Positions 23,748 through 50,750 of a stretch of DNA of 54,640 nt are shown here, piece by piece. Position numbers and translations under genes: made by a program. This DNA comes from Vicinamibacterales bacterium (GTDB lineage: Bacteria; Acidobacteriota; Vicinamibacteria; Vicinamibacterales; UBA2999). The notes below the pieces were generated by a model. It was not told the origin of the DNA. It made no database searches and was given only the letters and a program-made list of their open reading frames with translations. The first letter of the stretch is position 1; each line of letters begins with the position of its first letter. Location: positions 1 through 54,640 of the forward strand of contig DAIRFN010000002.1 in NCBI GenBank assembly GCA_036795065.1. The letters are read 5' to 3'.

Positions 23748-24818
23748 TTGCGGGGATTTACCCAAATGACAAGACGAACGGTGACGGTTTCGGCGGCGTT
23801 GATCGTCGCATTCCTGGCGGCGCCCCGGGCCGACATCCTCGAGCAGGTCCTGGTGAAGGTGAACGGCGACATCATCACCAAGACCGACCTCGAGCAGCGG
23901 CAGATCGCGACGCTCCGGCAGAAGGACCCCACCCTGCGCCCGGACGACGATGCCGCGCTCCAGAAGGCGCTGGCCGAGATCACGCCCGCGGTCATCGTGG
24001 ACGCGGTGGACGAACTGCTCATCCTCCAGCGTGGCCGCGAGCTGGGCTACGCGATGTCCAATGAGCAGTTCGACAGCATTGTCGACAACATCAAGAAAGA
24101 GAACAAGCTCGAAGACGAGGACCAGTTCCAGGCCGCGCTCAAGCAGGAAGGCATGACGATCGCCGACCTGCGGAAGCAGCTCGAGCGCACGATGATCGTG
24201 CAGCGCGTGCAGCAGACCGAGGTGATGAGCAAGCTGCAGGTCACCGACGCCGAGCTGAAGATGTACTACGACAGCCACAGGGAAACCTTCACGACGAAGC
24301 CGCAGATGACGCTGCGGGAGATCCTCGTTTCCGTACCGACCAGCGAGCGCGGCGTGAACGTGGGACTGGAGGAAGAGGCAAAGGCGAAGGCCGAGGACAT
24401 CCGCAAGCGGCTGGTGGCCGGAGAGCCGTTCGCGCGGCTGGCGGCCGACCTCTCCGACTCGCCCTCGAAGGCCAACGGCGGCCTGGTGGGGCCGATCACG
24501 ATGGACGTGCTCGCGCCCGAGTTCCAGCAGGCGCTCAAGGATCTGAAGGTGGGCGACCTGACCCCGGTCATGCGGACCGGCCGCGGCTTCCAGGTCGTCA
24601 AGCTCGAGACGATGGAGACGGCGACGGTGAAGCCGTTCGACGAATCGAAGGACGAGATTGCCGACCGCATCGCGAACGAGAAGCGGCGCGGCGAGTTCAC
24701 GAAGTTCCTCGAGAAGCTCCGCGGCCAGGCCATCATCGACTGGAAGAACGACGAGATCAAGAAGGCCTGGGAGGTCGGCCTGAAGCAGGCGGCCGAGGCC
24801 GTGCCGAGCGCGCGATGA
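23748..24818 (+). CDS. SurA/PrsA-like periplasmic chaperone with a parvulin PPIase domain
   Basis: Signal peptide (alternative start ATG 23766, MTRRTVTVSAALIVAFLAAPRA), a SurA N-domain-like region, and a parvulin segment (GGLVGPITMDVLAPEFQQAL..GDLTPVMRTGRGFQVVKL). Confidence 0.8.
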   Translation: MRGFTQMTRRTVTVSAALIVAFLAAPRADILEQVLVKVNGDIITKTDLEQRQIATLRQKDPTLRPDDDAALQKALAEITPAVIVDAVDELLILQRGRELGYAMSNEQFDSIVDNIKKENKLEDEDQFQAALKQEGMTIADLRKQLERTMIVQRVQQTEVMSKLQVTDAELKMYYDSHRETFTTKPQMTLREILVSVPTSERGVNVGLEEEAKAKAEDIRKRLVAGEPFARLAADLSDSPSKANGGLVGPITMDVLAPEFQQALKDLKVGDLTPVMRTGRGFQVVKLETMETATVKPFDESKDEIADRIANEKRRGEFTKFLEKLRGQAIIDWKNDEIKKAWEVGLKQAAEAVPSAR

Positions 24819-25327
24819 GCCCCGAGCCCGAGCCGCAGGAGCCCCAGTGGTACGCCATCTGGACGCGCTCCCGTCATGAAAAGGTGGTCCGCGATCAGCT
24901 CGAGCGCAAGGCGATCGAGGTGTTCCTGCCGACCATCGGCAAGTGGAGCCGCTGGAAGGACCGAAAGAAGAAGGTGGACTGGCCCCTCTTTCCGGGCTAC
25001 TGCTTCGCGCGCTTCGACGTGATGAATCGCCTGCCCGTGCTTACCTGTGACGGCGTCGTGCAGATTATCGGCACCGACGGTGTGCCGTCTCCCATTCCCG
25101 CCATCGAGGTGGAAGGCATCCGGCAGCTGGTCGAGAGCGAGCTCTCATACGACCCCTGCCCCCTCATAAAAGAGGGCGAAATGGTGAAAGTGGTTTCCGG
25201 CCCGTTGAAGGGCGTGGTGGGCCGCCTGCAGCGCAAGGGCGCTCACGCGCGGCTGGTGTTGTCGGTGGATCTCATCGGCCAGGCGGTGAGCGTCGAGGTC
25301 GACGCCGCGGACGTCCGCCCGTACTGA
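24815..25327 (+). CDS. NusG-paralogue transcription antiterminator (RfaH/UpxY-like: NGN + KOW)
   Basis: 170 aa. NGN-like WYAIWTRSRHEKVVRDQLERKAIEVFLP and KOW GEMVKVVSGPLKGVVGRLQRK. The start overlaps the preceding stop (ATGA). Confidence 0.8.
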   Translation: MSPEPEPQEPQWYAIWTRSRHEKVVRDQLERKAIEVFLPTIGKWSRWKDRKKKVDWPLFPGYCFARFDVMNRLPVLTCDGVVQIIGTDGVPSPIPAIEVEGIRQLVESELSYDPCPLIKEGEMVKVVSGPLKGVVGRLQRKGAHARLVLSVDLIGQAVSVEVDAADVRPY

Positions 25328-28797: not shown

Positions 28798-30171
<1,374 letters not shown>

Positions 30172-30180
30172 TTGCCGAGA

Positions 30181-30209
30181 TTGTCAAAGATTTGACAGCC
30201 GTTGTCAAG
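30181..30209. promoter_or_regulatory. Candidate operator: TTGTCAAA / TTTGACA / TTGTCAAG repeats in the divergent promoter region
   Basis: TTGTCAAA 30181-30188, inverted TTTGACA 30191-30197, TTGTCAAG 30202-30209. They start 10 nt upstream of the enhancer-binding-protein (EBP) gene start codon. Confidence 0.4.
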
Positions 30210-30354
30210 GCTGCACGCCTAATCCCACGGTGGCAGGAACCGATAGTTGAACTTGAGCGCGCACCGGCCCGACAGGACAGGTGACGCGCGAGACATCAAC
30301 GCCGGCGGCTACGGCCAGGAGGCAGGACACGTGGAACGTCAAACTGTGAGCATC

Positions 30355-30525
30355 ATGAAAGCGTGCGAGCTCGTGGGCGTCAGCCGACGCACGATCTACA
30401 ACTGGATCGCGGCCGGCAAGGTCGAGTACGTGCGGACGGCTGGCGGCAGCATCCGGATCTTCGTCGACACGCTGTGGCGGCAGCCCGACGGCTCGGCTCC
30501 GACGGCTCCGAACGCGGCGGTCTAA
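30355..30525 (+). CDS. Small excisionase/MerR-like helix-turn-helix DNA-binding protein
   Basis: MKACELVGVSRRTIYNWIAAGKVEYVRTAGGSIRIFVDTLW matches the HTH_17 / excisionase-family pattern. The start is trimmed from TTG 30247; GTG 30346 is also possible. Confidence 0.7.
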   Translation: MKACELVGVSRRTIYNWIAAGKVEYVRTAGGSIRIFVDTLWRQPDGSAPTAPNAAV

Positions 30526-30529
30526 GCAC

Positions 30530-30784
30530 GTGCTGACTGGACCGCAGGCGCCCATCGGGACAAGCATGGAAGGCTCCGTGTCGGGATTCGACGCCGACAA
30601 CCTGCGGTCGCTCATCCACCGCCTGAACAACCAGCTCGGTGTCATCCTCGCGCACGCCGAGCTGCTCGAGGCCAAGGCGCCAGACGAAGGCCAGCGCGCG
30701 CGCGCCACCCAGGTGGTCTCGGCCGCGTTGCAGGCGATGAGCCTGGCGCGCGAGATCCGCACGACGATGGCCCGGTCCGACTAG
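30530..30784 (+). CDS. Stand-alone histidine-kinase DHp (H-box) mini-protein with no catalytic ATPase domain
   Basis: 84 aa (72 aa if it starts at ATG 30566). LIHRLNNQLGVILAHAELLEAK...RATQVVSAALQAMSLAREI forms a two-helix pattern. It parallels the H-box of the neighbouring kinase (VAHELNNPLATILSWAERL). Third-position GC is high. Confidence 0.55.
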   Translation: MLTGPQAPIGTSMEGSVSGFDADNLRSLIHRLNNQLGVILAHAELLEAKAPDEGQRARATQVVSAALQAMSLAREIRTTMARSD

Positions 30785-30805
30785 GGCGTTTTCGTTCGTG
30801 CCTGG

Positions 30806-30824
30806 GGTCGGCGCCCTGCCGACC
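30806..30824 (+). terminator. Candidate hairpin terminator after the HTH/DHp gene pair
   Basis: GGTCGGC-GCCCT-GCCGACC, 22 nt after the stop. It is followed by a comparatively A/T-rich stretch, but there is no clean U-tract. Confidence 0.35.
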
Positions 30825-30930
30825 ACTCTACAATTTCGCAATTTGCTTACGGATTTGTGATCGGGCCACGCTCGTGGCTCGATCGGGGTCCCTTTCTGCG
30901 CATTCCTGCATGAAAAAGCCCGCCGAAACA

Positions 30931-30978
30931 CGTCAAATGGTTGACGAAATCCTCGTCAAAATCGTCAAAGCCGTGACG
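30931..30978. promoter_or_regulatory. Candidate upstream activator sites (CGTCAA repeats) for the -24/-12 promoter
   Basis: Perfect inverted repeat CGTCAA-ATGG-TTGACG (30931-30946), CGTCAAA at 30954 and 30963, and GTGACG at 30973. They lie 120-170 nt upstream of the -24 element, the usual distance for enhancer-binding-protein sites. Confidence 0.4.
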
Positions 30979-31098
30979 GCAGAGCCGGATCGCGGCCGAT
31001 CGACGCGCTCGAAAACGAATCTGCTAAGCGCTTTTATTTCAGTAGCTTACAGTCTTGGTCCGGGTTTGTGCCCGTCGCTCCACGCTCCTGCACAATCT

Positions 31099-31114
31099 TG
31101 GCATCGAGGTTGCC
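31099..31114 (+). promoter_or_regulatory. Sigma-54 (-24/-12) promoter candidate
   Basis: TGGCAT-CGAGG-TTGCC, with GG at 31100-31101 and GC at 31112-31113. The spacing matches the consensus TGGCAC-N5-TTGC exactly. It lies 37 nt upstream of ATG 31151, with GGAGG in between. Confidence 0.6.
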
Positions 31115-31150
31115 TCTATGGGGGTCGGGACCTAACCCTGGGTCCGGAGG

Positions 31151-32188
31151 ATGAGCGAACGAATGACTGTCGAAGCCAGCGCCGCAACCAACCGCGTCGA
31201 AGCCGGATTGCCCTTCGTCGAAGCCCTCGCACGTCGGATGGCGGCCACCATGCCGCACTCGATTGACCTCGGTGACCTCGTCCAGGACGGGGTGATCGGG
31301 CTCATCGACGCGGCCCAGCGGTTCGATGGGAGCCGCGGGATCAAGTTCGAGACGTTTGCCGAGCGTCGCATCCGCGGGGCGATGATCGATGCGCTGCGCA
31401 AGGATGCCTGGCCCCGCGGCGTGCGCCGCGTGCGTCGCGAGCTCGAGGCGGCTCGCGAGAAGCTGCGCGCCCAGCTCGGGCACGAGCCGTCGCTGGCCGA
31501 CCTTGCCGCCGCCGTCGGTTCCGACGAGAAGCGGCTGGGAAAGACCATCGTCCGCATCAACACCATCGAGTCCACGTCGCCTTACTCGACCGCCGAGCAG
31601 GTGGACGAGCAGCAGCTGCCGGCCGTGCTGATGCCGGCCGAGCCCGAGCGGCCCGATGCGCTCTACGAACAGGGCGAGGTGCGCGAACGCGTCCGCCGCG
31701 CGCTGGCCACGCTGCCGGCCCGGGAGCAGCGGGTGGTCTCGCTCTACTACTACGGCGAAGTGACGATGAAGGAGATCGGCAGCGAGCTAGGGGTGAACGA
31801 GTCGCGCGTGTCGCAGCTGCACGCGCGGGCGCTGAGGCGCCTGCGCGAGGCGCTCGGCGCGGATGCGACCCCGGCGGTTGCCGCGAAGTCGCTGCGCGCG
31901 GCCATTCTGGCCTTCCAGGTGAAGCCGGTGATGGCCAAGGCCTCGCTGCCCATGTCCGACACGCGCGTGGCCGCGCACGCCGAGCGGCGTGCCACCTCCG
32001 CGGTGGTGGTGCCCTACGACAGGGTGTCGCGTGCCGCCCGCAGCAAGTCGCCGAGTCTGAACGGCTTGGACAGCCAGCGGCAGCCGGTTTCTTCGAGAAA
32101 CCGCTCGGCGTCGGTGCCCGCCACGTCGCCCGTGACGAAGATCACTCGGCGCGCCAGGGCCGGTGTCGCCGCGGCCATCGCGCGGTAG
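31151..32188 (+). CDS. FliA/WhiG (sigma-28) family RNA polymerase sigma factor with a C-terminal tail of about 110 aa
   Basis: Region 2: DLVQDGVIGLIDAAQRFDGSRGIKFETFAERRIRGAMIDALRK. Region 4: REQRVVSLYYYGEVTMKEIGSELGVNESRVSQLHARALRRLREAL. The ORF then continues to 32188 and overlaps the convergent kinase gene. Confidence 0.85.
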   Translation: MSERMTVEASAATNRVEAGLPFVEALARRMAATMPHSIDLGDLVQDGVIGLIDAAQRFDGSRGIKFETFAERRIRGAMIDALRKDAWPRGVRRVRRELEAAREKLRAQLGHEPSLADLAAAVGSDEKRLGKTIVRINTIESTSPYSTAEQVDEQQLPAVLMPAEPERPDALYEQGEVRERVRRALATLPAREQRVVSLYYYGEVTMKEIGSELGVNESRVSQLHARALRRLREALGADATPAVAAKSLRAAILAFQVKPVMAKASLPMSDTRVAAHAERRATSAVVVPYDRVSRAARSKSPSLNGLDSQRQPVSSRNRSASVPATSPVTKITRRARAGVAAAIAR

Positions 32189-33534
32189 AACTGCATGCCA
32201 TCGATCCGCGGCATCTTCAGGTCGCAGACGATCAGCTCGTAGGACTGTTCGGCGAGGCGGGTCAGGCCCTCCTCGCCGTCACCCGCCCGATCCACGACGA
32301 AGCCGGCGTCGCCGAGCGCCTCGGACACGGCCACGGCCAGCGCCGGCTCGTCTTCCACCAGCAGCACGCGCGCGCCCTTGAACTGGTCCAGCGAGACCGA
32401 TCCGGTCTGCGGCGCGGCGGCGCCTGCCGGCGCCGGGCGCATGGCAACGGGAAGCTCCACGCAGAACGAGGCCCCGGTCTTCCCTTCCGACCTGACCCAG
32501 ATGCGCCCGCCGTGCTCCTGCACCAGCGCATAGGCCACGCTCAGCCCGAGACCGGTGCCCTTCCCCACTTCCTTCGTGGTGAAGAACGGGTCGAAGATCC
32601 GCGACTGCACCTCGGGCGGTACCCCCGGCCCGTCGTCGTTGATCTCGAGCAGCACGCTGCCCTTCTCGGGGTCGTGCCACGTGCGGACGACGAGCGTGCC
32701 ACGGCCGTGCGTGGTGAGCATGGCCTGCTCGGCGTTGATGACGAGGTTGAGCAGCACCTGCTTGATCTGGTGCGCGTCGGCAAAAACCTGCGGCAGCCCC
32801 GACGCGAGCGCCTCGATGAGGGTGATGTTCGAGACGCGCTGCTCGTAGGTGCGCAGCGCCAGCGTCTCCTTCACCACCTGGTTCACGTCCACCATCGCCC
32901 GTGTGCTCTGGCGCTTGCGCGCGAAGGTGAGCAGGTTGCGGACGATGCGCGCGGCGCGCTCGGCCTCGCCGAGGATGACGGCCAGCCCGCGCCGCGTCTT
33001 CTCGTCGGGGGGTTGGTCCGACAGCCGCTCGGCCCACGAGAGAATCGTCGCGAGCGGGTTGTTCAGCTCGTGGGCGACGCCGGAGATGGTGTGTCCGAGG
33101 GCGGCCATCTTCTCGGCCTGCAGGAGCTGGGCCTGGATGTCGCGCGACTGGTCGTCGAGCTTGCGCCGCTCGCCGACGTCGCGGAGCACGGCCTCGACAC
33201 GAAGGCCTTCCCCGGGAGCCCCCGGCTCCGCCGTGGCGGTCACCTCGACCCACGCGATCGAGTTGTCGAGCCGGCGGAGCCGCACCAGGTGATCGGAGAC
33301 GGCACCGGCCTTGCGAAGGCGGTCGAGGAGAGAGGCGCGCGCTTCGGGGTCCACGAAGCGGGGCGAATCGAACGGGCGCACCTGATCCCCGGCGTGCTCC
33401 GGGGGATAGCCGAGGATGAGCTTGAGGTGCGCGTTGACCGCGAGGGTGGTGGACGCGGCCGCGTCCAGGGTGCCGATGTAGAAGCCTTCGTGGGCCCCCT
33501 CGAAGAAGCGCGCGAAGCGCGCGACGTCCGTCAC
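32014..33534 (-). CDS. Cytoplasmic hybrid sensor histidine kinase (PAS-HisKA-HATPase_c-REC; no HPt domain)
   Basis: 506 aa. H-box GVAHELNNPLATI, N/G boxes (NLVINAEQAM, DDGPGVPPE, GTGLGLSV), and a C-terminal receiver (VLLVEDEPALA...ELIVCDLKMPRIDG...LSKPF). No TM segments. Confidence 0.9.
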   Translation of the reverse strand: MTDVARFARFFEGAHEGFYIGTLDAAASTTLAVNAHLKLILGYPPEHAGDQVRPFDSPRFVDPEARASLLDRLRKAGAVSDHLVRLRRLDNSIAWVEVTATAEPGAPGEGLRVEAVLRDVGERRKLDDQSRDIQAQLLQAEKMAALGHTISGVAHELNNPLATILSWAERLSDQPPDEKTRRGLAVILGEAERAARIVRNLLTFARKRQSTRAMVDVNQVVKETLALRTYEQRVSNITLIEALASGLPQVFADAHQIKQVLLNLVINAEQAMLTTHGRGTLVVRTWHDPEKGSVLLEINDDGPGVPPEVQSRIFDPFFTTKEVGKGTGLGLSVAYALVQEHGGRIWVRSEGKTGASFCVELPVAMRPAPAGAAAPQTGSVSLDQFKGARVLLVEDEPALAVAVSEALGDAGFVVDRAGDGEEGLTRLAEQSYELIVCDLKMPRIDGMQFYRAMAAATPALARRVIFVTGDVAGTDAERFLEETGCRWLSKPFRLGDLLRAARDTLS

Positions 33535-33601: not shown

Positions 33602-34816
33602 ATGAAGATATTCGGCCGCCAGGACCTTCTGCCGCTCGTCGGACTCGCGGCAGCCATCGTGGTCCTGTTCTCGGCACCCATTTCACGCCTCTTTTCCTTT
33701 GCCCGCCAGGTCGAGGAACAAAGCGGGTTGGCGCTCGTGCCGGCACTCGTCATGCTGGCGGTGGTCCTCATCGTCCACGAGGTACGCAAGCGTTACCAGG
33801 CCCAGACCGACGCCGCAGTGGCCGCCACCATGCGGCGCGAGGCGGACATCCGCACCGAGGAGACGGAGCGGCTCGTCTCGTTCGGCCAGGCGCTTGGCCG
33901 CTCGAGTGACTTCGACGCCATCCGCGTCAGCATCGCGCGCTACCTGCCGGCGATTGCGGGCACCGAGCGGATATGGGTGCTCGTGCGGGAGGGCACGCAG
34001 TGGGAGGCGCTGGCCGGCGACACCCGCGGGAGCGAGGAGACGCTCAGATGGGGTGATCTCGCGGAGCAGCTGCTGGCCGGCCAGGCCGGCGATGGCGACG
34101 ACGCGCACGCGGTTGGCTTTCCGCTGATGGCGGGTTCGTCCGCGATCGGCGTACTCGGCGTCCGCATGACGGACGGCCCCTTGTTGCCGGAGCGCCGCCG
34201 GGCCGTGGAGGCCGCGGCGCCGCTGCTGGCCCTCTCTATCAGGCATGCGCAGCTCGCGCGCGAGGTGCGCGAGAACAGCGTGCGCGATGCGCTGACCGGC
34301 TGCTTCACGCGCGGACACGCCATGGAGGTGATCGACGCCGAGCTTCGGCGCGCGCGACGCAGCCAGGAGCCCGTGTCGCTGATTGTGTTCGACGTTGATC
34401 GTCTGAAGGACGTCAACGACCGCCACGGCCATCTCTGTGGCGACGCGGTGCTCGCCGTCATCGGCAAGCGCATGCGCGAGGTGCTGCGAGGCTCGGACCT
34501 GAAGTGCCGGTATTCGGGCGAGCAGTTCCTCGTGCTGCTGCCCGAGACGCCGGTGCCGGGCGCTCGGCGCGTGGCCGAGACGCTGAGGCGCGAGGTGGCC
34601 GACCGGCCGGTGCCATGGGCGGGCGAGGACCTGCGCATCACCGCGAGTTTCGGCCTGGCCCACGCGCTCCCCGGCGAGGTGAACGTCCAGGCGCTCATCG
34701 CCCGCGCTGACCATGCGCAGTACCGGGCCAAGGAAGAAGGCGGCAACTGCGTCCGCATTGCCGCCGACACGACACCGGTGGCCGCCGACGGCGACTCCCG
34801 TCACCACGCCCAGTGA
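33602..34816 (+). CDS. Membrane-anchored GGDEF-domain protein with a degenerate active site (SGEQF) and an intact RxxD I-site
   Basis: 404 aa with two N-terminal TM segments and a GAF-like middle region. The GGDEF domain has FDVDRLKDVNDRHGHLCGD, RGSD (34487-34498) and RYSGEQF (SGEQF at 34514-34528). Confidence 0.85.
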   Translation: MKIFGRQDLLPLVGLAAAIVVLFSAPISRLFSFARQVEEQSGLALVPALVMLAVVLIVHEVRKRYQAQTDAAVAATMRREADIRTEETERLVSFGQALGRSSDFDAIRVSIARYLPAIAGTERIWVLVREGTQWEALAGDTRGSEETLRWGDLAEQLLAGQAGDGDDAHAVGFPLMAGSSAIGVLGVRMTDGPLLPERRRAVEAAAPLLALSIRHAQLAREVRENSVRDALTGCFTRGHAMEVIDAELRRARRSQEPVSLIVFDVDRLKDVNDRHGHLCGDAVLAVIGKRMREVLRGSDLKCRYSGEQFLVLLPETPVPGARRVAETLRREVADRPVPWAGEDLRITASFGLAHALPGEVNVQALIARADHAQYRAKEEGGNCVRIAADTTPVAADGDSRHHAQ

Positions 34817-37214: not shown

Positions 37215-39035
37215 GTGAACCCCATGACCGACCCGACCGGCAGGGCCGTGCACGCCGGGACGAACGAATCCCCCGCGGACCTGCCTTCCATCCGAAACGC
37301 CGCCGAACTGGCCGTCCTCACCGAGCTGGGCCGCGAGGTCACCTCGGTGCTCGACTTGAACGAGCTGCTCGAGAAGATCCCGCAGCTCATCTCGCGCCTC
37401 ACCTCGTTCACGGTGTTCTCGGTCTACCTGCTGGACGAGCGCCGCCACGACCTGCACATCGCCTACGCGGTGGGCTACCCGGAAGACGTGGTCCGCAACT
37501 TCCGCCTGAAGGTCGGCGAAGGCACGGTGGGCGCCGCGGTGGCCGAGAAGCGGCCCATCCTGCTCGACGACGTGGACAGCGACCCGCGCTATCACGCGGT
37601 GGTCCCGGGCGTGAAGTCGCAGCTGGCCGTGCCGATGCGGCACAAGGGCCAGGTGATTGGGGCGCTGAACCTGCTCAGCGACAAGGCCGCCGCGTTCACG
37701 GAGCGCGACGAGGTGATCCTGCGCCAGTTCGCGGTCCATGTCGCGCAGGCCATCGTCAACGCACGGCTGTTCGAGTCGGAGCGCGAGTACGCCGACACGC
37801 TCGAGACGCTGGCCGAGATTGGCCGGGAGATGAGCGCGATTCTCGACCTCGACGAGTTGCTCACGCGGCTCGCCCACCTCGTGAAGCGCATCATCAACTA
37901 CCGCATCTTCGGCATCGCGCTCCTGGACGAGCCCTCCCAGATGCTCGAGATGAAGCTCGCCATCCAGTACGGCGACAACCCGCGCGCGCTCGAGCCCGTC
38001 AAGCTGGGCGAAGGGCTGGTCGGGTACGCGGCGCTGCACCGCGAGCCCGTGCTCGTGGACGACGTGACGATGGACTCGCGCTACATCGCCGCCGTCGAGC
38101 ACGTGCGGTCCGAGATGGTGGTTCCGCTGATGCTGAAGGATCGCTGCATCGGCGTCTTCGACCTCGAGAGCCCCGAGCTGGCGGCCTTCAGCAAGAAGCA
38201 TGTGGAGCTGCTCACGCTGCTGGCCTCGCAGGCGGCGGTGGCCATCGAGAACGCCCGCCTCTACGAGTCGATTCGTGAGAACGAGCTCAGGATGGAGAAG
38301 GAGCTGCGCTTCGCGCAGCGCGTGCAGATGGCGCTCCTGCCGCAGGAGCTGCCGAAGCGCCTGCGTGGCGTGGAGGTGGCCTGGCACTTCGACGCGGCGC
38401 GCGAGCTGGGCGGCGACATCTACGATTTCCTCTCGCCCGAGCCGCAGACGCTGGTGGTGTCGGTGGGCGACGTTTCAGGCAAGGGCGTGCCCGCTGCGCT
38501 GTACAGCGCGTTCGTGGGCGAGCTGGTGCGCGGCCGCACCTTCCGCCGCCGCCTCGAGACCAGGCGCAGCAGCCCGGCAGTGGTGCTGAACGCCATGAAC
38601 CGCATCCTCAACGAGCGGCAGCTGGAGGAGTACTACTGCACGCTGTGCTATGCCATGTTCGACCTGCGGCGCCGCCAGGTGACGTTCGCCAACTCCGGCC
38701 TGCCGTTCCCGGTGCGCTACCACGCCGGCAAGGCGCGGCAGATTCCCATGCCCGGCGTACCCCTGGGCTCGTTTGCGGGCTCCACTTACGACGAGATCAC
38801 GCTCGACCTCGAAACGGGCGACGTGTTCGTGTTCTGCTCGGACGGCATCTTCGAAGCCTTCAACGAGGGGGGCGCAGAGTTCGGCGCGGGCCGCGTCATC
38901 GAGGTGGTGGAGCGCACCCATGCCCAGCCCGCTGAGGACATCGTCCGCGCGATCTTCGACGCCATGCAGGCGTTTCGGGGAGATGCGGAGCAGACCGACG
39001 ACCAGACGGTCGTGGTGGTGAAGATTACCGCGTAG
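37215..39035 (+). CDS. GAF-GAF-PP2C (SpoIIE/RsbU-type) serine phosphatase
   Basis: 606 aa. Two GAF domains (GEGTVGAAVAEKRPILLDDV; GEGLVGYAALHREPVLVDDV) and a PP2C domain (ELGGDIYDF, VGDVSGKGVPAAL, FCSDGIFEA, TDDQTVVVVK). Confidence 0.85.
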   Translation: MNPMTDPTGRAVHAGTNESPADLPSIRNAAELAVLTELGREVTSVLDLNELLEKIPQLISRLTSFTVFSVYLLDERRHDLHIAYAVGYPEDVVRNFRLKVGEGTVGAAVAEKRPILLDDVDSDPRYHAVVPGVKSQLAVPMRHKGQVIGALNLLSDKAAAFTERDEVILRQFAVHVAQAIVNARLFESEREYADTLETLAEIGREMSAILDLDELLTRLAHLVKRIINYRIFGIALLDEPSQMLEMKLAIQYGDNPRALEPVKLGEGLVGYAALHREPVLVDDVTMDSRYIAAVEHVRSEMVVPLMLKDRCIGVFDLESPELAAFSKKHVELLTLLASQAAVAIENARLYESIRENELRMEKELRFAQRVQMALLPQELPKRLRGVEVAWHFDAARELGGDIYDFLSPEPQTLVVSVGDVSGKGVPAALYSAFVGELVRGRTFRRRLETRRSSPAVVLNAMNRILNERQLEEYYCTLCYAMFDLRRRQVTFANSGLPFPVRYHAGKARQIPMPGVPLGSFAGSTYDEITLDLETGDVFVFCSDGIFEAFNEGGAEFGAGRVIEVVERTHAQPAEDIVRAIFDAMQAFRGDAEQTDDQTVVVVKITA

Positions 39036-49556: not shown

Positions 49557-50750
49557 CTAAGTGGCTACCGAATTCGTCACACGACTCAACACAAGTACGG
49601 TCAGGTCGTCCGAGAGGCGCTGGTCGCGGCGGTGGCGCTCCACGGCACCGAAGATCGCTCGACCCAGCTCGGCTGCAGCCGAGGTGCCGTAGGCCCCGGC
49701 GTGCAGCGCGAGGGTGCGCTCGAGGCCGGCCTCGTCGAAGGGGGTGCCGTCGGGGCTCTCGGCCTCGGTGATGCCATCGCTGTACATGATGAGGGCGTCG
49801 CCTGGCCCGAGGTCGATATGTCCCTGTTCGTACTCGGAGCCCTCGAACATCCCCAGCGCCACGCCGCCTGTGCTGAGGCGCACGATGCTGCCGTCCTGCC
49901 GGCGCAGCAGGGGCGGGGTCTGCCCGGCGTTGACGAAGTGGAGGTGGCCGGTGGCAGGGTTGTACGAGGCGAGAAACAGCGTGATGAACCGTGAGGCCGG
50001 CGCGTGCCTGGCGACCTGGACGTTCAGCCGGCGTGCCAGGGCCGGCAAGGGCAGGTTGTCGTCCACGAGCGTCCGGAGCATGGCCAGCAGCAGCGCCATC
50101 AGGAGGGCGGCCGGGCTGGCCTTCCCCGCGACGTCGCCCAGGGCGATGATGACCGTGCCGTCGGGTCTGGGCAGGATGTCGTAGAAGTCGCCGCCCACCG
50201 TGTTGGCCGGCTGGGTGAGGCCAAAGGCCTCGACGTCGGGGCCCGACCACGTGCCTTCGGGCAACATCGCTCTCTGGATTTCGCGCGCCACCTCGAGGTC
50301 GCGCTTCAGCGACAGGCGGTCGGCCACCTCGAGCAGCACGAGGAGGTTCAGCAGCAGGAAGCCGGAGAGCAGCCAGAGCGTGCCGTCGGCGAACACGGGC
50401 CCCGGCACGCCGAAGCGCACGAAGAACAGCGCGATGGGCAACCGGAAGCTCATGACGCCGAAGCCCTGGAACAGCTCGAAGAGGCCGATCACCGAGGTGA
50501 ACAGCGCCGCGCCGTAGATGGCTCGCCGAGCCGGCGACAGGCGCATGGTGAAGGCCAGGAAGAAGGCCTGGACGTACTTCACCGCCCGACGGTGCCACGA
50601 CAGGCCTTCGAGCTCCGCGGTGTTCACGCCGCGGGCAAAGAACCGGTAGGCCTCGGGCGTTTCGCGCGTGAAGAGCCTGCCCAGGTCCTCGGCGTTGAGG
50701 TCCTGAGTGTAGGTGGAGAGGAAATCCCGCGCCTTCGACCCGGGCGGCAT
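49557..50750 (-). CDS. Membrane-bound PP2C/SpoIIE-family serine phosphatase
   Basis: 397 aa with about 4 TM segments and then PP2C motifs (VGGDFYDI, LGDVAGKASPAAL, MYSDGITEA, SDDLTVLVL). Confidence 0.85.
   Translation of the reverse strand: MPPGSKARDFLSTYTQDLNAEDLGRLFTRETPEAYRFFARGVNTAELEGLSWHRRAVKYVQAFFLAFTMRLSPARRAIYGAALFTSVIGLFELFQGFGVMSFRLPIALFFVRFGVPGPVFADGTLWLLSGFLLLNLLVLLEVADRLSLKRDLEVAREIQRAMLPEGTWSGPDVEAFGLTQPANTVGGDFYDILPRPDGTVIIALGDVAGKASPAALLMALLLAMLRTLVDDNLPLPALARRLNVQVARHAPASRFITLFLASYNPATGHLHFVNAGQTPPLLRRQDGSIVRLSTGGVALGMFEGSEYEQGHIDLGPGDALIMYSDGITEAESPDGTPFDEAGLERTLALHAGAYGTSAAAELGRAIFGAVERHRRDQRLSDDLTVLVLSRVTNSVAT

Follow-up and report, generated by a model that had tools for sequence, protein, structure and literature searches.

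A conserved five-gene module

We analyzed a 54,640-nucleotide stretch of DNA (hereafter the window) from a Vicinamibacterales bacterium (Acidobacteriota; assembly GCA_036795065.1, contig DAIRFN010000002.1, positions 1 to 54,640 of the forward strand), in which an earlier note made from the sequence alone had singled out a very small gene at 30530 to 30784 on the forward strand. [quoted passage not shown] The mini-gene lies within a module comprising, in order, a sigma54-dependent response regulator (the activator), a helix-turn-helix (HTH) protein of the HTH_17 type, the mini-protein itself, a sigma factor of the FliA/WhiG family and a hybrid histidine kinase. The module belongs to soil Acidobacteria, and in it the mini-protein most likely hands on phosphate between the two receiver domains encoded there, or strips it from them. 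The earlier note had recognized the HTH gene and the kinase as neighbors; the wider module and the two promoters described below had escaped it.

The reading frame is present exactly as quoted previously, with 84 amino acids from GTG 30530 and a 4-nt gap after the HTH gene, whose stop codon TAA occupies 30523-30525. Coding potential had been claimed on the basis of third-position GC, and indeed the GC content by codon position is 0.70/0.49/0.90, with a codon bias like that of local genes. Across 54 core codons compared in 73 loci, the entropy by codon position (32.8/20.6/65.7) shows that variation is concentrated at third positions, and dN/dS is ~0.18. The mini-gene is a real gene under purifying selection. 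The locus-level counts given here and below (for about 80 to 89 loci) rest on 80 GTDB stretches retrieved out of 445, plus some further loci.

Two start codons had been suggested, GTG 30530 and ATG 30566 (the latter giving 72 amino acids), and the first of them is favored, though not firmly, because in relatives the first in-frame starts cluster at the HTH stop codon. This start falls between -8 and +12 nt from the HTH stop in about 55 of 86 related loci, with stop and start overlapping as GTGA in 25 and as TGATG in nine; the relatives L007 and L008 have no internal ATG and must use a start near the HTH stop. The same clustering suggests translational coupling, and the HTH and mini genes are probably co-transcribed as well as translationally coupled. 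In distant relatives an ATG 10-11 codons before the conserved His, with GAGGAG upstream, looked like the true start, but the longer form is preferred because the upstream residues are conserved at the amino acid level (motif SVEELLxRG) and a start is found at the HTH stop. ATG 30566 is a possible start in the window, and the core of the mini-protein is identical whichever start is used.

A terminator scan found no terminator 3' of the mini-gene, and an Rfam scan of 30100-31200 returned no RNA family. A 12-nt inverted repeat (GATCGGGCCACG / CGTGGCTCGATC, 2-nt gap) at 30859-30884, 75 nt 3' of the mini-gene stop, was not called as a terminator.

The mini-protein is a DHp hairpin without a catalytic domain

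The earlier note described the product as a stand-alone two-helix DHp unit bearing an H-box, lacking a catalytic domain and homologous to the DHp domain of the neighboring kinase, a description with which profile comparison, BLASTP and structure prediction all agree. BLASTP aligns the mini-protein with the hybrid kinase over 49 residues without gaps (37% identity, E 6e-7), with mini-protein His30 falling on kinase His155. Comparison by hhalign of the family profile with an alignment of 75 orthologous kinase DHp domains likewise places His on His (probability 95.3%, E 2.4e-8). The H-box alignment proposed earlier is thus confirmed, while the separation of 1.2 kb given with it is the distance to the nearest end of the kinase gene only; the kinase H-box codon (~33070-33072) is 2.3 kb from the mini-gene.

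Generic profiles recognize the mini-protein poorly. Its only Pfam match is HisKA (PF00512), which at 16.1 bits misses the gathering threshold of 26.9, and this profile reaches E < 0.1 in only 24 of 79 family members (best 0.0035). The other profiles that the earlier note had named fared no better: HisKA_2 and HWE, together with HisKA_3, gave scattered weak matches only, and at E <= 1 the mini-protein has no match to a Spo0B-like, HPt (PF01627), FlgM, other anti-sigma or Spo0E-like Pfam family. On reading, its sequence contains neither the RsiG motif E-x3-S-x2-R-x3-Q-x3-D nor the SQELD motif of Spo0E. HATPase_c has no match in the 84 residues and is not encoded by a stand-alone gene in the module, and helix 2, after which the protein ends within 12 residues, is followed by no C-terminal alpha/beta domain, or remnant of one, resembling the catalytic and ATP-binding (CA) domain.

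AlphaFold2, supplied with a 79-sequence alignment, predicts an antiparallel hairpin (pLDDT 90.5) whose helices span residues 5-37 and 41-71 of the 72-residue form; there are two helices only, unlike the four-helix bundle of HPt proteins. The top Foldseek matches in the PDB are the DHp domains of GacS, RetS, ERS1, ZraS and ShkA, the best being the RetS-GacS DHp co-complex 7n0e; all E-values are at least 0.17, as is to be expected of so generic a fold as a two-helix hairpin, and the matches count as weak support. A search of PDB sequences with the family profile gave a best E of 0.16, with matches falling on the C-terminal helices of GAF domains and not on H-boxes, and these were rejected as chance.

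The candidate phospho-acceptor His30 (codon 30617-30619, plus strand) lies in the H-box HRLNN, with Arg at H+1 and Asn at H+4. The earlier note had made much depend on homologues with a conserved His, and these are numerous: of the 258 small proteins in the family, 256 retain the His, 256 have Asn at H+4 and 248 have Asn at H+3. Position H+1 is Arg in 221, Gln in 13, Thr in 10 and Lys in 9 of them, and acidic (Glu) once. Measured against the H-box pattern H-[E/D]-x-x-[T/N], the family has therefore kept the His and the H+4 Asn and lost the H+1 acid. His42, the second His in the motif quoted earlier, is variable (His, Asn, Gln or Tyr), and only His30 is conserved. The core LxHRLNNQLG[VI]ILAxAELLEAKA...RARAxQVV is near-invariant even though the genomic neighbors are only 62-75% identical, and the helix after the His is near-invariant on all faces, including H+7, H+8 and H+11, positions that Skerker (2008) and Casino (2009) are said to have identified as receiver contacts in HK853 and EnvZ.

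In four HisKA kinases studied by Willett and Kirby, kinase activity alone requires the acidic residue at H+1, and phosphatase activity alone requires the Thr or Asn at H+4 (PMC3510030). Since the His and the H+4 Asn are kept and the H+1 acid is lost, the residue pattern of the family appears to be that of a DHp domain that does not autophosphorylate but would still carry out chemistry on a receiver. The mini-protein itself is not expected to autophosphorylate, having neither an ATP-binding domain nor an acidic residue next to its His.

A family of short proteins in hundreds of species

A word-indexed search through 5.8 billion proteins gave 2542 matches; the best 120 of these are all 56-111 amino acids long and 62-93% identical to the mini-protein, and none carries a precomputed Pfam domain. 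An exhaustive HMMER scan over 1.84 billion cluster representatives gave 263 at E <= 0.001, and the best 150 of the 263 are all 66-182 amino acids long, with no full-length kinase among them. GTDB contigs, taken as one genome per species, contain 445 stretches with a relative of the mini-protein. The 80 stretches retrieved come from metagenome-assembled genomes of Vicinamibacterales/Acidobacteriota, apart from a few with implausible bin labels. The latter (L002, L010, L012, L014, L017, L042, L055 and L074) are labeled Bifidobacteriaceae, Acidimicrobiia, Gemmatimonadaceae or Cyanobacteriota; their contigs carry the Vicinamibacterales-type module, fully syntenic and highly identical, and the bins are probably mislabeled or contaminated. 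Family members are annotated by NCBI as 'hypothetical protein' and, for some, by JGI as 'two-component sensor histidine kinase'. Our literature search found no description of a DHp-only, HisKA-only or stand-alone DHp protein, nor one for Vicinamibacter with sigma-54.

Part of the homologues of 135-182 amino acids form a genuine subfamily with an N-terminal extension (DLSRWIGPLSPAF). In its distant representatives L081-L088 (e.g. L085:10001-10420), which are 135-174 amino acids long, a linker of low complexity connects the conserved N-terminal peptide MFAHD...DLSRWIGPLSPAF with an H-box that reads HTLNN. Others of the long homologues, such as P0171, are wrong-frame gene calls across the HTH gene. 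P0145 and P0180 are rare in-frame HTH-mini fusions whose reality is uncertain, as they may be frameshift or gene-calling artifacts.

Organization and products of the module

The gene order is the same in all 80 species loci: activator (minus), HTH_17 (plus), mini-gene (plus), sigma factor (plus) and hybrid kinase (minus). Divergent members of the mini-protein family (42-50% identity) retain this standard order. The subfamily with the N-terminal extension has a second order, namely sigma, HTH and mini-gene on the plus strand followed by a convergent operon of activator and hybrid kinase; in L085 the kinase and the activator thus have an operon of their own. The five genes are kept together through this rearrangement (two orders, down to 42% identity), which speaks for a functional unit.

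The activator (28798 to 30171, minus strand), divergent from the HTH-mini operon and found in 80/80 loci, consists of a receiver domain (Asp56), an AAA+ sigma54-interaction domain and a Fis-type HTH (Pfam Response_reg 1.7e-24, Sigma54_activat 5e-73 and HTH_8; AtoC/NtrC-like by NCBIfam). The hybrid kinase (32014 to 33534, minus strand) has a PAS-like N-terminus, HisKA (His155 in the H-box HELNN), HATPase_c and a C-terminal receiver (Asp438) but no HPt domain (Pfam HisKA 2.9e-14, HATPase_c 2.6e-26, Response_reg 3.5e-20; CckA/EspC-like by NCBIfam), and is part of the module in all arrangements seen. Both receivers keep the acidic pocket, Asp, Thr and Lys. No flagellar or HPt gene was found among the scanned genes of the window.

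The HTH protein (30331 to 30525, plus strand; 64 amino acids from GTG 30331, preceded by AGGAGG at 30317-30322) is an HTH_17 or excisionase-type DNA-binding protein (Pfam HTH_17 1.4e-8; NCBIfam excisionase-family 2.7e-9) with a conserved N-terminus, MERQTVSIMKAC, and its gene is followed by the mini-gene in every locus examined. In seven loci (L015, L026, L040, L043, L054, L063 and L065) the HTH-mini spacer is 36-114 nt long and contains short tandem repeats, such as GCCAGTA x5, GGGTGCCCTACGCT x5 and GGCAGTTG-like units.

The sigma factor (31151 to 32188, plus strand; NCBIfam FliA_WhiG 8.7e-61, above cut-off; Pfam r2, r3 and r4) comprises a domain at residues 1-238 and a C-terminal tail, and its gene ends 175 nt inside the convergent kinase gene. 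This overlap (32014-32188) has the same length in 56 of 81 loci. The part of the sigma open reading frame within it runs antisense to the sequence for the kinase receiver's conserved end, and the tail preceding it has a conserved motif of its own, LRxAxLAFQxKPxMxKAxL.

A GGDEF diguanylate cyclase gene (33602 to 34816, plus strand; Pfam GGDEF 1.4e-38) is a frequent though not universal neighbor, lying 3' of the kinase gene with good coverage in 48 of 89 loci. Its position beside a WhiG-like sigma gene is reminiscent of the Streptomyces switch formed by c-di-GMP, RsiG and WhiG, but no RsiG motif occurs in the mini-protein.

Promoters and circuit layout

Upstream of the HTH-mini operon lies a candidate sigma28-type (FliA/WhiG-type) promoter at 30219-30245 on the plus strand, TAAT-N15-ACCGATAG within CTAATCCCACGGTGGCAGGAACCGATA, a pattern with one match in the window against 0.03 expected. 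The FliA/WhiG consensus is TAAA-N15-GCCGATAA. The block CTAA-N17-CCGATA, which alone is conserved in the intergenic sequence upstream of the HTH gene, is assigned as sigma28-type because it matches this consensus at the canonical spacing. The strict pattern occurs in 61 of 80 loci, and most of the others have a CCGATA-like -10 element. A sigma54-like motif (TGGCAG...) upstream of the HTH gene was rejected, its spacing being off by one and its GC dinucleotide missing.

The sigma-factor gene is preceded at ~50 nt by a sigma54 (-24/-12) promoter, TGGCAT-N5-TTGC (31099-31114, plus strand). In 79 of 81 loci the sigma gene is preceded by a GG/GC element that fits the consensus at 8 or more of its 11 positions, and one is present also in the rearranged L085 (TGGCACCCCCGTTGC). 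About 120-170 nt further upstream are two tandem palindromes of the CGTCAA-N4-TTGACG type (30926-30978, plus strand; 32 nt apart; direct-repeat family D1), which are candidate binding sites for the activator. The strict form GTCAA-N4-TTGAC is found in 41 of 80 loci at a similar distance from the sigma54 promoter.

The activator gene has a sigma70-like promoter candidate on the minus strand (30180-30208; TTGACA-17-GACAAT; one found in a consensus scan against 0.2 expected), which overlaps a conserved GTCAA-N4-TTGAC palindrome at 30177-30192, and TTGAC/GTCAA half-sites are ~7-fold enriched in the activator-HTH intergenic region across loci. In the window this candidate is overlapped, within 30177-30208, by the palindrome TGTCAAAGATTTGACA and by one more half-site, TGTCAA, and its -10 element ends only 9 nt before the activator ATG, which suggests a nearly leaderless, possibly autoregulated transcript.

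To judge from the conserved motifs, the genes would form a cascade in which the phosphorylated activator, with sigma54, drives expression of the FliA/WhiG-like sigma factor, which in turn drives the HTH-mini operon. This putative sigma54-to-sigma28-type cascade lies in a 54-kb window in which no flagellar genes were seen. Since a sigma28-type promoter precedes its operon, the mini-protein is made downstream of the cascade on which it probably acts.

A possible second histidine in a phosphorelay

We suggest, with a probability of roughly 40%, that the mini-protein is the second histidine (H2) of a reversible phosphorelay leading from the kinase receiver to the activator. This is the most economical reading of the module because it supplies a first histidine and aspartate (H1-D1, the hybrid kinase), a second aspartate (D2, the activator), no HPt and one further conserved His protein, a composition that persists through both gene orders and down to 42% identity. 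Two mini-protein hairpins would pair into a four-helix bundle with His30 exposed on helix 1, and would dock receiver domains through the invariant face of that helix. Phosphate would pass from kinase His155 to Asp438 of the kinase receiver, to His30 of the mini-protein and finally to Asp56 of the activator. The phosphorylated activator would fire the conserved sigma54 promoter of the sigma gene, and the FliA/WhiG-like sigma factor would in turn act at the sigma28-type promoter ahead of the HTH and mini genes. With the kinase off, the relay would be expected to run in reverse and the mini-protein to drain phosphate from the activator.

Such an arrangement has precedents. In the CckA-ChpT-CtrA pathway a CckA-like kinase works with a DHp-type transferase, and the kinase described here scores as CckA-like. 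Spo0B of Bacillus and ChpT of Caulobacter resemble the mini-protein in originating from a kinase DHp domain and in bearing the His on helix 1; both are dimeric four-helix bundles that shuttle phosphate between two receivers, properties that we infer for the mini-protein. In Spo0B and ChpT a CA-like alpha/beta domain is retained at the C-terminus and H+1 is acidic, whereas the mini-protein has neither feature and has no Pfam match to their families. Support for its proposed transferase role comes from genomic context, every module having a hybrid kinase and a sigma54 activator but no HPt. The LuxQ-LuxU-LuxO pathway connects a hybrid kinase, through a small His protein, with a sigma54 activator. 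With its LuxQ/LuxN kinases, its NtrC-type activator LuxO and a sigma54 promoter, this Vibrio relay is close to the present module in composition. However, LuxU is an HPt protein, a monomeric four-helix bundle whose gene is co-transcribed with luxO, whereas the mini-protein is a DHp hairpin without an HPt match, and its gene shares a sigma28-type promoter with an HTH gene. More speculatively, the mini-protein may stand for a class of histidine phosphotransferase that is structurally a third kind, each subunit having two helices, which could help to explain hybrid-kinase signaling in HPt-poor genomes.

Several observations weigh against the relay. The mini-gene stands behind a sigma28-type promoter in the arrangement of the window, or within the sigma operon behind the sigma54 promoter in that of L085; a protein made downstream of its own target would require basal expression, and a feedback role fits such a layout better. 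In L085 the kinase and the activator share their own operon in the manner of an ordinary cognate pair, and it is possible that an HPt protein is encoded elsewhere in these genomes. The invariant H+4 Asn corresponds to a residue needed for phosphatase activity and not for transfer (PMC3510030). Covariation between the mini-protein and the receivers was inseparable from phylogeny (weighted mutual information of variable mini-protein columns, 72 modules, Neff 52): the distribution was the same against the activator, HTH protein, sigma factor and kinase (mean 0.28-0.33), the top pairs were scattered clade markers, and a sorted table of helix-1 segments showed clade-level co-changes only.

Alternative roles

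The main competitor, to which we give a somewhat lower probability than to the relay, is a dedicated feedback phosphatase of the phosphorylated activator (or of the kinase receiver); a dimer of the hairpin would dock its target, and the H+4 Asn and His30 would position a water molecule. Since it would appear only once the sigma54-to-sigma28 cascade had fired, it would provide delayed negative feedback, combining FlgM-like logic with the chemistry of a DHp domain fixed in the kinase-off, phosphatase-on state. The residue pattern suits this role: H+1 is non-acidic in 257 of 258 members and the H+4 Asn is present in 256 of 258, and it is the former position that in HisKA kinases serves only the kinase reaction and the latter that serves only the phosphatase reaction (PMC3510030). 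The same source reports that isolated DHp fragments of EnvZ ('domain A') and NtrB, ~67 amino acids long and so like the mini-protein in size and fold, are enough to dephosphorylate response regulators and in vivo cause a phenotype of constitutive phosphatase activity. The activator belongs to the same class as NtrC, the partner of NtrB. Those fragments were engineered from complete kinases, whereas the mini-protein belongs to a natural, independently evolving family with its own promoter and a non-acidic H+1. The promoter layout, which puts the mini-gene downstream of the activator, and the shared operon of kinase and activator in L085 also favor a phosphatase, and Spo0E proteins offer a precedent for helical hairpins that dephosphorylate a response regulator. 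However, a phosphatase would leave unexplained why every module has a hybrid kinase with an intact receiver, and the relay would then lack its second histidine. Nor can the motif decide between the two, as Spo0B also has Asn at H+4. The two roles do not exclude one another, since a reversible relay drains phosphate too.

It is improbable that the mini-protein is a DHp decoy, which would join the hybrid kinase's DHp domain in a mixed four-helix bundle and block autophosphorylation of the kinase, as RetS does to GacS. RetS and GacS of Pseudomonas, the complex that gave the best Foldseek match, are a case of one DHp acting on another kinase through a mixed helical bundle; the homology with the kinase DHp and the equal helix and loop lengths implied by the ungapped 49-residue alignment would permit such pairing, and expression downstream of the cascade would again give negative feedback. 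RetS, however, is a full-size hybrid kinase-like protein, and the structural match is generic (E at least 0.17 throughout). A decoy needs neither the phospho-acceptor His nor the H+4 Asn, yet both are kept in 256 of 258 members, and the solvent-exposed residues of helix 1 are as conserved as those of the core. The invariant His and H+4 Asn, with loss of the H+1 acid, therefore argue for His chemistry over mere blocking and against a pure decoy, while being compatible with a shuttle or a phosphatase.

We also give poor odds to a role as partner of the transcription machinery, either as an anti-sigma factor of the FlgM or RsiG kind for the FliA/WhiG-like sigma factor or as a stoichiometric partner of the HTH_17 protein. 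HTH followed by mini-gene is the most constant adjacency in the module, often with overlapping stop and start codons; the rare fusions P0145 and P0180 join the two in frame, sigma, HTH and mini-gene share one operon in the distant subfamily, and a GGDEF gene is a frequent neighbor. Control by a sigma28-type promoter mirrors that of flgM, and like FlgM the mini-protein is a small helical protein made under the pathway that it may restrain. But it matches neither FlgM, any other anti-sigma family nor Spo0E-like proteins in Pfam at E <= 1, the c-di-GMP motif of RsiG is absent, and its conserved residues are precisely those of a kinase H-box. The fusions may be artifacts of frameshift or gene calling, as the long homologue P0171 clearly is. 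One elaboration, itself a long shot, is that the hairpin binds the HTH_17 protein at a fixed ratio, suggested by the overlapping stop and start codons and the occasional fusions, and that phosphorylation of His30 by the kinase receiver switches the DNA-binding complex. If so, a transcription factor would be controlled by phospho-histidine on a detachable DHp subunit and not by a receiver aspartate.

Finally, a spurious reading frame or a decaying, functionless kinase fragment, to which the small size, the sub-threshold Pfam score and the weak Shine-Dalgarno sequence in the window might point, can be dismissed in view of the dN/dS of ~0.18 with predominantly third-position variation, the always short relatives in 445 species genomes and a core more conserved than the neighboring genes.

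Implications and genomic setting

Two-component signaling as generally described involves kinases, receivers and two kinds of histidine phosphotransferase, namely HPt bundles and the Spo0B/ChpT type with a dead catalytic domain. Into this scheme comes a bare DHp hairpin that forms its own family under strong selection in hundreds of species, locked into a circuit with a hybrid kinase, a sigma54 activator, a sigma28-like sigma factor and an HTH protein. Its fold and likely chemistry are of a familiar kind; what is new is the circuit and an architecture of two helices with nothing added. Censuses of genomes list 'incomplete kinases' that have no catalytic domain but leave them unexplained. The closest published statement is a remark in one census that a kinase-like protein missing HATPase_c might nevertheless receive phosphate or pass it on (PMC5847659). 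Were the mini-protein the second histidine of a relay, it would be a minimal natural phosphotransferase and a candidate answer for hybrid kinases without a known HPt partner; were it a feedback phosphatase, it would be the natural counterpart of the engineered EnvZ and NtrB fragments. In either role it would offer a compact, testable system in the poorly studied Vicinamibacteria, with a putative sigma54-to-sigma28 cascade outside a flagellar setting.

The module is embedded in a conserved chromosomal neighborhood (24815-25327, 37215-39035 and 49557-50750), which includes a short NusG-domain paralogue beside a SurA-like gene and Mfd, as well as two SpoIIE/PP2C phosphatases, one of them with two GAF domains. 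The same neighbors also flank the rearranged module in L085 and L089.

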